Positions 8,930 to 63,556 are shown, counted from the first letter of the stretch. The stretch is 64,000 nt of DNA from Alphaproteobacteria bacterium (GCA_017642585.1 JAGCOR010000005.1:47529-111528), one strand, 5' to 3'. A program made the numbers and translations. Notes: generated by a model not told the origin, from the sequence alone.

Positions 8930-9355
8930 ATGAAAAAGAAACACAACAGATTTGATACCGAATTCAGTGATTTTTATTTCACAGAATCTGATTTAAACGG
9001 CAAAGTTTTAAATACATTTAAACGCAAATATGCGGGCCGATTTGCTGACTATGCGAAATCTTTAAAAACACCATGTCATATTCATTCTGTGTATTCGCTG
9101 AATTTTGTTGATACATATCAAACAGATGCAAATGGTTTACACCCTATTGTTCATATTGTTCAAAGACCTATCGATTTTTATGTCGTCAGCAATGAAGAAG
9201 AATTAAATAAAGTTTTGGAACAAGTTCCAAATAAAAATATCAAAGTTGTGAACAAAAGATTACATCCTGTACACCCATACCAAGATGACAGCTTAGATGT
9301 ATCACTTTGGTGTTTTTTCAACAGGGCTGAAAATTTAAAAAAACATGTCAGATAA
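8930..9355 (+). CDS. Hypothetical protein
   Basis: 141-aa ORF with SD AAGGGTG; overlaps the queH start. Confidence 0.7.
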   Translation: MKKKHNRFDTEFSDFYFTESDLNGKVLNTFKRKYAGRFADYAKSLKTPCHIHSVYSLNFVDTYQTDANGLHPIVHIVQRPIDFYVVSNEEELNKVLEQVPNKNIKVVNKRLHPVHPYQDDSLDVSLWCFFNRAENLKKHVR

Positions 9356-59337: not shown

Positions 59338-59412
59338 GGCGGCGTAGCTCAGTGGTAGAGCAGAGGAATCATAATCCTTTGGTCAGGGGTCCGAATCCCT
59401 TCGCCGCTACCA
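59338..59412 (+). tRNA. Elongator tRNA-Met(CAT)
   Basis: GGCGGCG/CGCCGCT acceptor, GAGGA-ATCATAA-TCCTT anticodon arm, CCA. T-loop reads TCCGAAT (C55). TTGCAA...TATAAT promoter upstream. Confidence 0.92.
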
Positions 59413-59587
59413 AAATAACAAACGACCCTTGTGGTCGTTTTTTATTTTGATATAATCGCAACGTATGAGGACCCCTGGTCCGACAAAATAGCAGTTGAGA
59501 ACAAGTGAAACGCCGTTCGAAACGTTGCGATTTGGAAAGGGGCCCGTTGCGAAGCAATGGGAATATACAATCCCTTCGCCGCTACCA
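59413..59587 (+). repeat. 175-bp folded tRNA-linked element, copy 1
   Basis: Ends in a 19-nt copy of the tRNA 3' end AATCCCTTCGCCGCTACCA (59569-59587); homologous to 63285-63457. Confidence 0.9.
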
Positions 59588-59668
59588 AAATTCGCCGGCA
59601 TTTGCCGGTTTTTTTATATTTTTTTGTCATAGTAATTTTTTTGCAAAAATACAGATTTTTTAAATTGT

Positions 59669-59706
59669 TTCTACACAACCGATACACAAAGTTCTACACA
59701 AAGATT
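59669..59706 (+). repeat. Three tandem ~11-bp repeats (putative integrase arm-type sites)
   Basis: TTCTACACAA, GATACACAAA, TTCTACACAAAGATT; the same motif occurs at 63147-63172. Confidence 0.65.
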
Positions 59707-59804
59707 GACACCGTATTATGTTTAACGTTATACTAGTTTTTATATAATATACATACCGTAATGAATATGGTTGTATTAAACTGTAAAAGTTAGTGGTGTT
59801 ATAA

Positions 59805-60836
59805 ATGTTACCGATTATGGCCTCTGTTGCTGGTTATGAATTGACAGATGCGGAAAAATACTGGCTAGAGAAAAATCAGCCCGCTGGTATAAGTTTTTTT
59901 TATAATAATATAAAAAGCAAAAAACAGTTACAGCAACTTATAAAACAAATCAAAGAAGTAACCGGTAACGATAAAATATTACTTTATGTTGACCAAGAAG
60001 GTGGACAAGTATGCCGTTTGGTTGGGCAAGAATTTAAGACATATGCACCACAAAAACGACTGGGTGAGGTTTCACCCCAAGCAACGCGGTTGCATGCGGG
60101 TTTAATCAGCACAGATTTCAAAGAACTGGGGCTGAATATGAATAGTTCACCAGTTTTGGATGTTTTGCGTGCCAATACCAGTTCCGTTATTGGGTCGCGT
60201 TCTTTCGGCAGCGATAAAAAATTAGTGGCAGAACGTGGCAAGGAAATGATAGCAACCTTTATCAAAAACGGTGTTTGCCCGATAATGAAGCATGTCCCTG
60301 GCCATGGTTCAGCGGTGGAGGATTCGCATCTTGGATTGCCAATAATCAGTAAGAGTTTGGATGCACTGGAAACCGATTTTTATCCGTTTATGGCTAATCG
60401 TGATATTCCGGCAGCAATGACCGCACACGTTGTGATTGCGGCCGTAGATGATACAAAACCAATCACAATTAGTAAAAAAGGTATAGATACTTTGATTCGT
60501 GGGCATATCGGTTTTGATGGTTTGTTAATTTCTGATGCGATGGAAATGCGTTCACTTAAAGGTACAATCGGTGAGAAAACACGACAAGTTTTGGAAGCTG
60601 GTTGCGACTTGGCTCTTTATTGTAGTGGCGATATCAACGAGTTGAACGATATGGCTGCGAATTGTACGCCTATGAGTGATAAAACAGCGGAACGTTTGGA
60701 AAAAGTATATCAGGTTATTACAAAACCACTGTCGAATGAAAAATATGACTATGTCGAATACGTTGCTTTAACTGGTCCTTTACAGGCTTATTCCAAAGCC
60801 ACTGATATGACGATGGTTTTGGAAAACATGAAGTAA
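59805..60836 (+). CDS. nagZ: Beta-N-acetylhexosaminidase (GH3)
   Basis: VDQEGG.V.R, PVLDV, IGSRSF, KHVPGHG...DSH, MTAHV, ISDAMEM. Confidence 0.92.
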   Translation: MLPIMASVAGYELTDAEKYWLEKNQPAGISFFYNNIKSKKQLQQLIKQIKEVTGNDKILLYVDQEGGQVCRLVGQEFKTYAPQKRLGEVSPQATRLHAGLISTDFKELGLNMNSSPVLDVLRANTSSVIGSRSFGSDKKLVAERGKEMIATFIKNGVCPIMKHVPGHGSAVEDSHLGLPIISKSLDALETDFYPFMANRDIPAAMTAHVVIAAVDDTKPITISKKGIDTLIRGHIGFDGLLISDAMEMRSLKGTIGEKTRQVLEAGCDLALYCSGDINELNDMAANCTPMSDKTAERLEKVYQVITKPLSNEKYDYVEYVALTGPLQAYSKATDMTMVLENMK

Positions 60837-60856
60837 TTGTAAACAAGGAGAATTTC

Positions 60857-61390
60857 TTGTTTAAAGTTAGAAATGCCAAATTGACAGATGCAAATGCCAT
60901 TTATAACATATGGGCTGCTGGATGGAAATATGCGTATGCTAAGGTTTTATCACAAGAATTCTTGGCACATTATGTCAACGATACCATAGTTGAAGAACAT
61001 ATAAAAAGATTCCCAAAGACATTGCGTGAAGAAACAAAAAAAGGAAAGATTTTTCTTGTATTGTGTAGTAATAATAAGGTTGTTGGTTTTGTTTATGGTG
61101 GTTTGCCAAGTTTGCAAAAATACAAGTGCGACTGCGAATTAGACACAATGTATTTAAATACCGAATATATCGGCATGGGTGTTGGCAAATTATTGTTTCA
61201 ACAGTTTGCCAAAAGACTAAAAGCAAGGGGGGCAAGCACTCTGGGATTGTGGTGTTTTTCTGACAATGATAGTATCGGATTTTATAGAAAAATGGGAGGT
61301 GTTATCATTGATTATCAACGTAATACAAAAATCGAAAATGTTTTAGTTGCATACATTAAGTTTGATATAGATGAAGTTCTGAAAAAATAG
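60857..61390 (+). CDS. GNAT acetyltransferase
   Basis: VRNAK..DA, ELDTMYL..EY.G.GVGK.L, N.S.GFY.KMG. Confidence 0.88.
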   Translation: MFKVRNAKLTDANAIYNIWAAGWKYAYAKVLSQEFLAHYVNDTIVEEHIKRFPKTLREETKKGKIFLVLCSNNKVVGFVYGGLPSLQKYKCDCELDTMYLNTEYIGMGVGKLLFQQFAKRLKARGASTLGLWCFSDNDSIGFYRKMGGVIIDYQRNTKIENVLVAYIKFDIDEVLKK

Positions 61391-61450
61391 GCTTTTTAGT
61401 TCTAAAATGGATTTGAACAGATAAAAACACAGGGATAAAAACATAAAACA

Positions 61451-61477
61451 AAAAACCGGTCAAACGACCGGTTTTTG
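61451..61477 (+). terminator. Intrinsic terminator before the DUF3800 operon
   Basis: AAAAACCGGTC-AAAC-GACCGGTTTTT. Confidence 0.75.
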
Positions 61478-61527
61478 TTGATTATTCGCATGTTTTGTGT
61501 TAGGTTCTAATAACAAAAGGAAAAAAC

Positions 61528-62292
61528 ATGACGAACAAAATAAATATTTATTGTGACGAATCGTGTTATTTAGAATACGACAAGTGTCCGTCTATGGTAT
61601 TAGGTGCTATTATTTGTCCTCAAATCTATGTAAAAGAGTTGTCGAGAAAAATAAAAGATATTAAGAAAAAATATAAAATACCTACTACTTCCGAGATAAA
61701 GTGGACAAAAATATCAAAATCAAAAGAAAAACTGTATTTAGAACTAATAGATTTGTTTTGTCAAGTACCATATGTTAGATTTCGTGCAGTGAAAGCGATA
61801 AACAAAAAGCATTTGCATCACAGTGATTTTAAAAGCAGTCATGACGATTGGTACTATCGCATGTATTACATATTGCTTATATACATCATAGAGTACAAAA
61901 ATGATGAGTTTTTCACCTATATAGACATAAAAGATACAAAAAGTTCACAAAAAAGGAATAGGTTAAAAGAGTGTATTGCTAATACATACAATAAAGAGGA
62001 TAATGTTGGTGAAAAAATTGCGGATAGGATTAAAAATATACAGGCCGTGCGTTCAGAGGAATCACAATTACTACAGTTAGCAGATATTCTTATTGGTGCA
62101 ACAGGTTATGAAGAAAGAATCAGTAAAATAAAACAAGAAAAACCAAGTTTTGAGCCAAGTGAAACCAAGTTGAATATTTGTAAACATATAAAAAAATCAT
62201 TGAGAATAACATCGTTTGAAGAAAATATAAGATCCTCTAAGTATAACCTATTCATTTGGTCTCCAGATTACAAAAGGGCAACAAATGCTTAG
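61528..62292 (+). CDS. DUF3800-family protein (phage P1 RlfA-like)
   Basis: N-terminal IYCDES, EIKWTK, YIDIKD, C-terminal S.ESQLLQLADILIG (QxxD). Confidence 0.88.
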   Translation: MTNKINIYCDESCYLEYDKCPSMVLGAIICPQIYVKELSRKIKDIKKKYKIPTTSEIKWTKISKSKEKLYLELIDLFCQVPYVRFRAVKAINKKHLHHSDFKSSHDDWYYRMYYILLIYIIEYKNDEFFTYIDIKDTKSSQKRNRLKECIANTYNKEDNVGEKIADRIKNIQAVRSEESQLLQLADILIGATGYEERISKIKQEKPSFEPSETKLNICKHIKKSLRITSFEENIRSSKYNLFIWSPDYKRATNA

Positions 62293-62791
62293 TTTCCCTG
62301 AAATTATCCCGTTTGACTGGAATGATCCAGAAAACTTAAATAAATGTTACGACATTTATTTAAGGTCTTTATATTTGGGAAATCATTATTTTTTAGGTAA
62401 AAAAGTTCATTATGATGATAAAGAGATAGATGGAAAACACGCATGCTTTTGGCATTTGATAACTAGAAACGAAAAAGATTTTAATGAAAGATATCCAAAT
62501 AGAGAAAGATTAGAACGTATTCATTGGACAGCTTTCATGTTAGAAAATTCAGAATCAGAGGATATTACTTGTTGGGAAGAATTGGTACGAACAAAGAAGA
62601 GAGGAGAAAGATATCAAACTTTTTTATATTCAAAACAATATAAATTTGTAGTTATATTAGAATTACAAAGTCATGATCTTTATAGATTGGTCACTTCTTA
62701 TTATGTTGATGAAAAGTGGAGAAAAGACAGGTTTAAACAACATGCAAAAAGATACCGTGATCCGAGAAAAAGTATCGGGAGCGCAGTATAA
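62285..62791 (+). CDS. Hypothetical protein, phage P1 RlfB-like, possible RNase toxin
   Basis: FWHLITR...RYPN.ER.ERI.W...FVVILE....Y.LVTSY; overlaps the DUF3800 stop by 8 nt. Confidence 0.6.
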   Translation: MLSFPEIIPFDWNDPENLNKCYDIYLRSLYLGNHYFLGKKVHYDDKEIDGKHACFWHLITRNEKDFNERYPNRERLERIHWTAFMLENSESEDITCWEELVRTKKRGERYQTFLYSKQYKFVVILELQSHDLYRLVTSYYVDEKWRKDRFKQHAKRYRDPRKSIGSAV

Positions 62792-62874
62792 ACAACGCCC
62801 CCGGAATTCACTCTGTCTTTTAACAGACTTACCTTCGTAAACTATGAAATAATTTACTTCTACGGTAAGTGAAC
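62767..62874 (-). ncRNA. Putative ~110-nt structured RNA convergent on the DUF3800 operon
   Basis: Multi-stem junction (GUUCAC/GUGAAU, CUUACC/GGUAAG, GUAAAUUA/UAGUUUAC, CUGU/ACAG), 9-bp GC hairpin with U5 tail, dedicated promoter, no plausible ORF. Confidence 0.7.
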
Positions 62875-62880
62875 ACTTAT

Positions 62881-62909
62881 ATAATAACAAAAAAACACAA
62901 AATTGTCAA
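62881..62909 (-). promoter_or_regulatory. Sigma70-type promoter driving the putative ncRNA
   Basis: TTGACA (62909-62904), 17-nt spacer, TATTAT (62886-62881). Confidence 0.75.
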
Positions 62910-63146
62910 TATTTTTTACTTGACTTTTAAAAAATGCATGTTTTATGGAGATTGTAGTTAGTGTATTTATAGGATATAGAATACAAGAATATTCTAATTA
63001 TAATTGATTTTTATATAAAAACTATATTTATAACATTTATTAAATGTTTTTATCCTATTGAAAAATGAAAAAATCAATATTTTTGGGCGAGAGTGGAAAA
63101 TAGGTTGGTTTAGATGTGAGCACATATGGTATTTTTGTATGTGTTG

Positions 63147-63172
63147 TTCTACACATTCTCTACACAAAGATT
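63147..63172 (+). repeat. Two tandem putative arm-type sites near attR
   Basis: TTCTACACA and TCTACACAAAGATT; the latter matches 59693-59706 exactly. Confidence 0.65.
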
Positions 63173-63239
63173 TTTTATTGGTTAGAAAAATCGCTGTAAG
63201 ATGCAGAAATCTGCGTTATTTAATTTCTGGCTCAAACTT

Positions 63240-63284
63240 ATCATAATCCTTTGGTCAGGGGTCCGAATCCCTTCGCCGCTACCA
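63240..63284 (+). repeat. attR: 3' 45 nt of tRNA-Met
   Basis: Identical to 59368-59412; the 5' half of the tRNA is absent. Confidence 0.93.
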
Positions 63285-63457
63285 AAAATTCAAACCGGGT
63301 GTGTCCCGGTTTTAATTTTGGTATAGTCGCGAAAAATGAGGACCCTGGGTCCGACAAAATAGCAGGTTTTGCGAGCGTAAGCGTGGCGAAACCGTTGCGA
63401 TTTGGAAAGGGGCCCGTTGCGAAGCAATGGGAATATACAATCCCTTCGCCGCTACCA
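63285..63457 (+). repeat. 173-bp folded tRNA-linked element, copy 2
   Basis: Ends in AATCCCTTCGCCGCTACCA (63439-63457); last ~65 nt identical to copy 1 while internal stems are diverged. Confidence 0.9.
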
Positions 63458-63556
63458 AAATTTAAACCGGGTTTATCCCGGTTTTTTGTTTGAGTAATCA
63501 ATGATTTTATTGACAGTAAAGATTGATTTGTTATGCTGTGAAAAAAGGAATAATAA

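Follow-up and report, generated by a model that had tools for sequence, protein, structure and literature searches.

We analysed a 64,000-nt stretch of DNA from an alphaproteobacterium (GCA_017642585.1 JAGCOR010000005.1:47529-111528), here called the window, in which a tRNA-Met(CAT) gene at 59338-59412 and a 45-nt tRNA fragment at 63240-63284 each have a terminator and then a folded unit downstream, the units ending at 59587 and 63457, respectively. A preliminary description, made from the window alone, had depicted each unit as a terminator hairpin, an inverted copy of the tRNA end and a T-loop split by two hairpins, and this anatomy proved right in every particular checked. The units share their architecture with the repeats downstream of tyrT in Escherichia coli, the source of RtT RNA. 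The features of the two units, all on the + strand, are:

59338..59412, +: tRNA-Met, anticodon CAT, CCA encoded (ARAGORN; Rfam tRNA model, 66.4 bits); its A58-A76 is repeated by both units
59420..59440, +: terminator-like hairpin between tRNA-Met and unit 1, a symmetric A-tract, stem and T-tract called on both strands
59445..59468, +: unit 1 5′ arm, a degenerate complement of the tRNA 3′ end that ends with the AUGAG signature (sequence, inverted repeat and family analysis)
59469..59482, +: unit 1 tip hairpin GGACC-CCT-GGTCC, then G57; its 3′ strand is the T-stem/T-loop 5′ half of tRNA-Met (GGTCCG)
59483..59568, +: unit 1 insert M, between G57 and A58, made up of Pa, GAAAGGGG, Pb, AAU and the linker ATAC
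59483-59534, +: long irregular hairpin Pa of unit 1, within insert M
59543-59561, +: hairpin Pb of unit 1 (CCC...GGG), after the conserved GAAAGGGG and before AAU and the linker ATAC
59569..59587, +: unit 1 tail, a 19-nt exact copy of tRNA-Met A58-A76, CCA-ended (AATCCCTTCGCCGCTACCA; repeat search)
59594..59609, +: terminator-like hairpin 3′ of unit 1 (terminator prediction)
63240..63284, +: tRNA-Met fragment, 45 nt, from anticodon loop to CCA, the right-hand direct repeat of an island (59368-59423 versus 63240-63295, 95%)
63292..63312, +: terminator-like hairpin 5′ of unit 2 (terminator prediction)
63316..63353, +: unit 2 5′ arm TTTTGGTATAGTCGCGAAAAATGAG and tip hairpin GGACC-CTG-GGTCC, then G57 (sequence, inverted repeat, folding)
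63354..63438, +: unit 2 insert M, with a Pa centre unlike that of unit 1 that pairs nonetheless, and a core plus Pb (63405-63434) the same as in unit 1
63439..63457, +: unit 2 tail AATCCCTTCGCCGCTACCA, an exact copy of tRNA-Met A58-A76 (repeat search)
63464..63484, +: terminator-like hairpin 3′ of unit 2, with the same stem as the hairpin before unit 2 and a different loop

Each unit reads GGTCCG up to G57, then the insert, then the tRNA sequence from A58 onward, which places the insert exactly between G57 and A58; the split of the T-loop was thus described correctly to the nucleotide. The window units have the form AUGAGGACC...GGUCCGA, the unusual T-loop of this particular tRNA-Met having been copied by the unit. 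In unit 1, the G and A of the AUGAG signature lie opposite A58 and G57. The inserts are 85-86 nt long, with the conserved GAAAGGGG separating Pa from Pb. Units 1 and 2 align over their whole length, and the 3′ 73 nt are 99% identical. The differences fall in the terminator stems and at the centre of Pa, with pairing kept in both versions, so that the inner stems do differ in sequence while still pairing, as originally claimed. The last 45-56 nt of tRNA-Met recur at 63240-63295 with 95% identity.

Folded in the sense orientation and compared to dinucleotide shuffles, the two units gave z scores of -2.68 and -2.57; the main argument against chance, however, is the family described below. Neither ARAGORN nor Rfam (tRNA, tmRNA and YrlA models) made any call on them. 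A relation to tmRNA was considered and set aside, the host genome having its tmRNA elsewhere: ARAGORN reports one at C15:5420-5748 with tag AANDNVRIAMAA, marked by an asterisk that we take to denote the permuted, two-piece form, as in Alphaproteobacteria.

The unit family and its structure

The host genome (968 kb in 30 contigs, 88.85% complete) holds 12 copies of a strict core motif; the insert core of the family reads GAAAGGGGCCC-hairpin-GGGAAU. Three further units, behind tRNA-Pro(tgg), tRNA-His and tRNA-Arg(acg), carry variant cores, for a total of at least 15 units in ~1 Mb. These variants, at C4:89967, C5:30195 and C16:8859, have cores of the form GCCCCGCAGGGC...GCCCGAGGGAAUC and of a third type. 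Because the strict motif misses such variant cores, the family counts given here are lower bounds, and genomes scored as zero may hold units. The motif was found in 188 of 328 genomes of the order and in 178 of 256 of the genus, with 0 to 12 copies per genome and with related genomes not independent of one another; a reversed control pattern gave a single match in the 328 genomes. In a sample of 401 genomes of the phylum, the motif was confined to the host genome, one genus-mate and three matches without a hairpin. We also scanned 185,579 species genomes, and all of the matches listed came from Alphaproteobacteria, Candidatus Enterousia or metagenome-assembled genomes of uncultured (proteo)bacteria. 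In these samples, the core motif occurs nowhere convincingly outside the order. A further element variant may exist in family f3 of the same order, where two loci (L037 and L038) have the GAAAGGGGCCC-hairpin-GGGAAU core between other flanks (GGCGGAGGGTACAGGGAG... upstream, ATCCACTCGAACG downstream), adjoining a tRNA on the opposite strand and, in L037, in tandem.

From the host genome and the fetched loci we extracted 132 distinct units. A tRNA gene lies on the same strand within 400 nt upstream of 105 of these, with 23 anticodon types represented. The tail is an exact copy of the last 18 nt of the local tRNA in 70 of the 105 and agrees at ≥16 of 18 positions in 84. For the remaining 27 units no tRNA was found within 400 nt in the fetched piece; some of these are second units of arrays, some lie at contig ends and some are orphans. 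One orphan (C27:33715-33740) has a tail of the tRNA-Ser(tga) type, lies 20 kb from that gene and is preceded by a ...CTCCGCCA remnant and a terminator. The layout is constant: a terminator, a degenerate complement of the tRNA end, the signature (G)AUGAGRAC, the tip hairpin, the 5′ half of the T-loop, the two-hairpin insert, A58-CCA and a second terminator. The insert position, 57/58, is invariant across the units examined. Unit length ranges from about 110 to 175 bases, and Pa falls into three size classes (about 10, 18-27 and 49-57 nt). At most loci the units occur without any island.

To assess the structure of the insert, we compared its two hairpins across units. Pb is represented by 102 distinct sequences among the 132 units, and 101 of the 102 are more stable than shuffles of their interiors. 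Single departures from Watson-Crick pairing comprise 35 G.U pairs versus 0 A.C mismatches. By folding energy, the sense strand is the more stable of the two in 115 of the 132 units; hence the insert hairpins belong to the tRNA-sense strand. For the long class of inserts (53 sequences), the alignment contains 21 consensus pairs, 13 of which show compensatory double changes. Paired cells amount to 95.6%, compared to 80.8% in column shuffles (0 of 500 reach the observed value) and 25-47% when partners are slid by one to three columns, these controls being column shuffles of kin sequences with no tree in the null. Collectively, these data support selection on structure rather than sequence, in line with the preliminary description, which had proposed a selected structure. 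A cloverleaf-like fold with two separate T-arms was also considered, and the long-hairpin fold fits better, as judged by hand on Glu and Arg units. Similarly, a hammerhead-like reading of GAUGAG...CGA was rejected because the GAA after stem II is not conserved (by eye) and there is no Rfam match.

The 5′ arm is less regular. Its best match is the complement of the last 19 nt of its own tRNA in 77 of 97 first units, and the median identity is 68%. The inverted copy of the tRNA end noted at the outset is therefore real, if weak. At variable acceptor/T-stem positions, 55-90% of units have an arm base able to pair with their own tail, versus 36-61% for other tRNA types, a control that is biased by fitting. 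Opposite G57 and A58, where C and U would be complementary, the arm has G and A, a replacement that accounts for the widespread string GAUGAGAAC, and A58 faces a non-pairing base in 67% of units. Several alignments of Glu, Arg and His arms have a 2-nt deletion opposite the acceptor/T junction. In addition, the degenerate arm remains unchanged between species while Pa gains compensatory changes. Taken together, the GA signature, the recurrent deletion and the conservation across species argue that the arm is not simply decaying. In two relatives (L058 and L064), Arg(cct) and Trp units lack the terminator, and a near-perfect complement of the tRNA end directly follows CCA; these may be young units.

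Could the units act in cis, as part of the tRNA transcription unit? They might serve as read-through traps or processing modules, the tRNA-end complement pairing with the upstream tRNA end in read-through transcripts while a second tRNA-like end and terminator secure 3′ processing and insulate downstream genes. The position and strand of the units relative to the tRNA are invariant, the 5′ arm is symmetric about the terminator and can pair with either the upstream or the downstream tRNA end, terminators stand before 92 and after 77 of the 97 first units, and Rfam types RtT as Cis-reg. Nevertheless, about 8 of the 44 tRNA genes of the host genome bear units, and the set of tRNAs differs among species. 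Orphans such as the one on C27, at 20 kb, lie far from any tRNA, the 27 units with no tRNA within 400 nt point the same way, and a conserved, covarying insert of 45-100 nt exceeds the needs of a trap. We regard a cis-acting role as improbable.

Relation to the E. coli tyrT repeat

The units downstream of E. coli tyrT, 178 bp each, have the form GGGGAAGG-AUGAGAA-hairpin-GGUUCGA-insert-AAUCCUUCCCCCACCACCA, where GGGGAAGG is the complement of the tRNA-Tyr T-stem/acceptor. The preliminary description had cited these 178-bp repeats, ending in the last 19 nt of the tRNA, as an established case; that statement is accurate, and the connection goes beyond analogy to a shared architecture. In RefSeq, rttR is annotated as a 171-nt RNA with its 3′ end at the CCA of the unit. 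Of 5426 E. coli genomes, 4726 have units of the tyrT type, at one to nine places each, and copy number varies among strains.

The Rfam model of RtT (RF00391) scores the E. coli tyrT units at 133-138 bits. Across E. coli and family f47 the scores range from 48.8 to 137.5 bits, above the gathering cut-off of 45 bits; the f47 hits are on Tyr and Lys units, the latter in three other f47 genomes. RF00391 gave no score on Val, Ser, Trp or host-genome units. A signature of the architecture itself (GATGAGAAS, 3-16 nt, GGTTCGR) is present in 55 of the 401 genomes of the phylum sample. Among the 30 loci listed for this pattern, 9 are bona fide (14 matches, 13 of them with a 15-16/16 copy of the upstream tRNA end), behind Ser, Trp, Arg, Tyr, Lys and Val tRNAs; the other 21 are chance, mostly in coding sequence. 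Other Proteobacteria, then, also have RtT-like units, placed after Ser, Trp, Val and Lys tRNAs. In the opposite direction, a model built from 43 units of the present family only (R1) aligns with all four E. coli units full-length and in register. These matches are weak (15.3, 12.4, 12.2 and 9.5 bits; E = 0.008-0.67 in 66 kb), and the score comes partly from the tRNA-derived flanks. R1 also has a weak full-length match in the window at 9212-9282 (12.6 bits, E = 0.066), ending ...ACCCAUACCA, which may be chance or a decayed unit. In a cross-lineage alignment, one pair column of the tip hairpin is A-U elsewhere and G-C in Met units.

The window units, then, lie on the same strand 3′ of a tRNA, repeat its last 19 nt including CCA and have the internal architecture of RtT, including the insert at 57/58, while scoring below the 45-bit gathering cut-off. 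Given the silence of RF00391 and the architecture shared with E. coli tyrT, they look like a divergent variant of a known, poorly understood kind. Judged from these sequence comparisons, the units are a lineage-specific, divergent branch of RtT-like elements, and the RtT kind is broader than its Rfam family. In the literature searched, the tyrT repeat and RtT RNA are mentioned only in passing, and the searched portions yielded no printed description of a wider RtT-like superfamily. The E. coli tyrT repeat dates from the late 1970s and RtT RNA from 1991; to our knowledge, neither has an accepted function.

Mobility, transcription and candidate roles

Units at different tRNAs of the host genome have Pa hairpins that are identical or agree at 95%, whereas compared with units at the same tRNA in other genomes they are 68-75% alike. 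Rows in which the junction was misplaced, by an internal TTCG in long Pa or by a double GGTTCG in C4, are noise, and the C4 rows were left out. Met units are the exception, being 92-100% like the Met units of other genomes. The identity of Pa at different tRNAs within one genome indicates that units recombine and spread within genomes. Tandem arrays are common, with fixed periods of 143-182 bp, and contigs of related strains contain both an island-free junction (59367->63240) and unit-unit junctions. At three tRNA loci of the host genome, one to four genes lie between units. Two of these inserts hold a single gene: at tRNA-Gln(ttg) (C29:41400-42830), an open reading frame (ORF) of about 260-289 aa that is endonuclease/exonuclease/phosphatase-like by eye, and at tRNA-Gln(ctg) (C4:50200-51350), a 103-aa ORF. 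Each insert is directly followed by a short leftover of the tRNA end (...ACAACCA).

A segment of this sort, 3.87 kb long and bordered by the 45-48-nt direct repeat of tRNA-Met, separates the two window units. It comprises:

59588..63239, +: island between the units, four ORFs, flanked by the tRNA-Met repeat
59805-60836: GH3 beta-N-acetylhexosaminidase-like gene
60857-61390: GNAT acetyltransferase gene
61528-62292: gene for a DUF3800 protein
62285-62791: 168-aa ORF, no family assigned

Both ends of the island carry a directly repeated 3′ portion of the tRNA. The corresponding empty site, an island-free joint 59367->63240 at which 48 letters fit both sides, is found in one related-strain contig (run X1). 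No integrase gene is present among its four ORFs (GH3, GNAT, DUF3800 and one without a family). The 3.87-kb segment is a separate island and a matter distinct from the units; the label attR, given earlier to the fragment at 63240-63284, is apt, and presence/absence polymorphism, which had been named as a test, is seen, as is polymorphism in copy number. From the tRNA repeat around the island and the island-less contig, it follows that unit 2 is the resident unit. Unit 1, the Pa of which is identical to that of a Met unit from another species (L126), would have been brought or duplicated by the island with its 45-48-nt repeat, or would have arrived by recombination. Near both island ends, at 59669-59706 and 63147-63172, lie direct repeats TTCTACACA.../TCTACACAAAGATT, with an exact 14-nt copy at 59693-59706 and 63159-63172; these may be arm-type recombinase sites or promoter-associated repeats. 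A sub-threshold match to the Rfam Phe leader at 61447-61555 (36.5 bits versus a cut-off of 55) overlaps a terminator, strong and bidirectional, that separates the GNAT gene from the DUF3800 gene (61451-61476), and probably reflects that terminator alone.

The tRNA repeat around the island, the tandem arrays with their copy-number variation and the degenerate look of the 5′ arm would also be expected if the units were functionless scars, that is, tRNA 3′-end duplications left by island integration and excision or by unequal crossing-over and since decayed. Decay does not account for compensatory changes in 13 of 21 pairs, for 102 different Pb hairpins that nearly all fold, or for an exact tail alongside a degenerate arm. 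Nor does it account for the retention of the same degenerate arm between species while Pa compensates, or for the 57/58 position, AUGAGAA and sequence blocks common to E. coli and other classes. We consider the scar explanation very improbable.

A stronger case can be made that the units are non-autonomous mobile DNA, folded as sense-strand single-stranded DNA (ssDNA) like attC, CTX-phage attP or REPIN. Here, the arm and tail would re-form an imperfect duplex of the tRNA T-arm/acceptor, with the insert bulging at the crossover point, and a recombinase, host-borne or transient (XerC/D or a phage integrase, for example), would insert units and cassettes at tRNA 3′ ends. Sense-strand-specific hairpins are expected of ssDNA as well, terminators on both sides without a promoter suit it, and so do the fixed-period arrays (143-182 bp), the cassettes of one to four genes at three host tRNA loci and the identical Pa at different tRNAs within one genome. 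Moreover, the 2-nt arm deletion at the acceptor/T junction would give extrahelical bases, C-GNA-G triloops are frequent, and the end of a prophage abuts a tandem array of His units.

The partner enzyme, by contrast, was not found. The preliminary description had envisaged, as one of two alternatives, an attC/REPIN-like site mobilised in trans, with a co-occurring tyrosine recombinase or HUH/RAYT gene; the other was a small, CCA-ended RNA mimicking tRNA. Y1/HUH transposase (PF01797) is present in neither the host genome (0/1, 88.85% complete) nor unit-rich relatives (0/5), and the host genome likewise has no TnpB (PF07282; 0/1), IS110 or reverse transcriptase. Its only tyrosine recombinases are two, XerD- and XerC-like, and the integron-integrase models reach 114 bits there, far below the cut-off of 265, so the expected partner failed to materialise. 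A test for attC-type behaviour gave a one-strand folding bias and cassettes between units at the three host loci, with most units lacking a cassette. Reverse transcriptase was rejected as a partner: absent from the host genome, it occurs in 5/5 unit-rich and in 3/5 zero-core genomes. One such gene (L306:2849-4200, relative G140) encodes a 342-aa protein (RVT_1) directly after a 108-aa ORF, beside a DUF559 gene with no tRNA nearby; by its composition the locus appears to be a diversity-generating retroelement-like system unrelated to the units. Carriage by phages was rejected as well, since 16 of 17 matches on viral contigs are chance. The one real match (L167:1-400, minus strand) is a predicted prophage contig that ends in a degenerate tRNA-His-like 3′ fragment, a terminator and tandem His-type units beside phage genes, and the units are on the host side of the prophage end. 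Furthermore, a single recombinase would need to serve 23 tRNA types, the rewriting of both arms for each new tRNA is left unexplained, and the E. coli relative is an RNA. On balance, mobilisation as ssDNA seems unlikely to us, with roughly one chance in four.

The reading that we favour, and to which we give about an even chance, is that the units encode a predicted read-through-transcribed, CCA-ended structured RNA with a tRNA-identical tail. The unit would be transcribed by read-through from the strong tRNA promoter. Its arm and tail would form a long imperfect helix, with the insert branching off at a tandem G.A junction. Trimming to the CCA by the enzymes that mature tRNA 3′ ends would then yield a small stable RNA, as rttR is annotated to be in E. 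coli. A small RNA is favoured by the E. coli case, by structure on the sense strand, by the tandem G.A junction and by a CCA tail copied exactly. At the DNA level, the repeated 19-nt tRNA end with its terminator would be prone to unequal crossing-over, which would explain the tandem arrays, the changes in copy number and the presence of cassettes or islands between units.

Several observations weigh against this RNA. A terminator-like hairpin with a T-run precedes 92 of 97 first units (one also follows 77 of 97), and -10-like hexamers are not enriched before units (best score 3.66 versus 3.97 in shuffles; 4 of 114 strong), so any RNA would depend on terminator read-through. An own promoter was rejected for want of a general signal; both window units have TGnTATAAT-like strings, which are not general across the family. 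In addition, unit 1 folds equally well in antisense (z = -2.58), so that shuffle folding of the two window units alone does not distinguish the strand of the structure. Many loops are C-GNA-G triloops, which are especially stable in DNA hairpins. Where the arm departs from a perfect complement, the changes mostly disrupt pairs (G>T 102, G>A 60, G>C 58, versus the wobble-keeping C>T 49 and A>G 25), and the arm-tail helix is only modestly specific, with 7.2 bp versus 4.9 bp for foreign tails (of 105 units, the own tail pairs better in 56, ties in 18 and pairs worse in 31). RF00391 has no match on the window region (E≤1), on 14 unit loci (E≤0.1) or in the whole host genome (E≤10). Finally, the sequencing runs found are contig-level, contain 6% of sampled words and may be DNA; their cover over units can be read neither as expression nor as its absence.

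Significance and comparison with known systems

The RtT architecture extends to gut Alphaproteobacteria of a remote lineage, whose genomes are very small; there it is found at no fewer than 23 tRNA types, with up to 12 strict-core copies per ~1 Mb. From this family comes an anatomical definition, namely an insert at 57/58 of the T-loop, an opposing GA signature, an exact A58-CCA tail and a degenerate complementary arm, together with hundreds of natural variants for structure inference. It also poses a puzzle, the rewriting of both arms for each tRNA. For annotation, the tRNA-end repeats that units create could pass for island att sites, and the units indicate where small cassettes accumulate.

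More speculatively, RtT-like elements could be one proteobacteria-wide superfamily, in which a folded insert moves among tRNA genes and acquires direct (A58-CCA and the T-loop 5′ half) and inverted partial copies of the local tRNA end through host enzymes only. The products could be 'acceptor-end mimic' RNAs specific to each tRNA, and the units could be landing pads for cassettes. We offer this as a tentative possibility that is rather less than probable. If true, it would imply a retargeting mechanism not known from any mobile element, with the tyrT repeat, now 48 years old, as the first and unrecognised member of the superfamily.

The attL/attR sites of tRNA islands resemble the units in that the tRNA is regenerated by direct repetition of its 3′ part, as with the 45-48-nt repeat in the window and the 3.87-kb insert missing from a related-strain contig. 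The units go beyond simple att cores, however, having a conserved folded insert within the T-loop and a partial copy in inverted orientation. Moreover, the units mostly occur without an island, and the window island is without an integrase.

With attC sites and REP/REPIN elements, the units have in common that structure is kept over sequence, that the imperfect hairpins are strand-specific with possible extrahelical bases, and that cassettes are present at some loci. However, no integron integrase or RAYT/Y1 transposase was found with the present units. The unit arms copy the adjacent tRNA and are not core sites shared by a whole family, and the units are tied to tRNA 3′ ends. Likewise, a CCA 3′ end and a helix derived from the acceptor/T-arm recall tRNA-like RNAs (tmRNA, the Y-RNA-like YrlA and viral tRNA-like structures), although the units have no D or anticodon arm and their T-loop is interrupted.

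The closest relative is RtT, and here too there are differences. The present family has its own core (GAAAGGGGCCC-hairpin-GGGAAU) with three Pa size classes and is far wider, spanning 23 tRNA types, with 15 or more units in one ~1-Mb genome. A terminator separates tRNA and unit in 92 of 97 cases, compared to none seen in E. coli tyrT, the 5′ arm often extends to the complement of CCA, and the units are without a tpr-like ORF. Nonetheless, both lie directly 3′ of a tRNA on the same strand, often in tandem, and both end in the 19 nt of tRNA A58-A76, with CCA. Both also comprise a partial complement of the tRNA end, AUGAGAA, a hairpin, GGUUCGA and an insert at 57/58, and the cross-lineage alignment reveals common blocks, AGCG(N)AGCG and CGAA(A)GGG, with a closing ...A(A/G)UCC.

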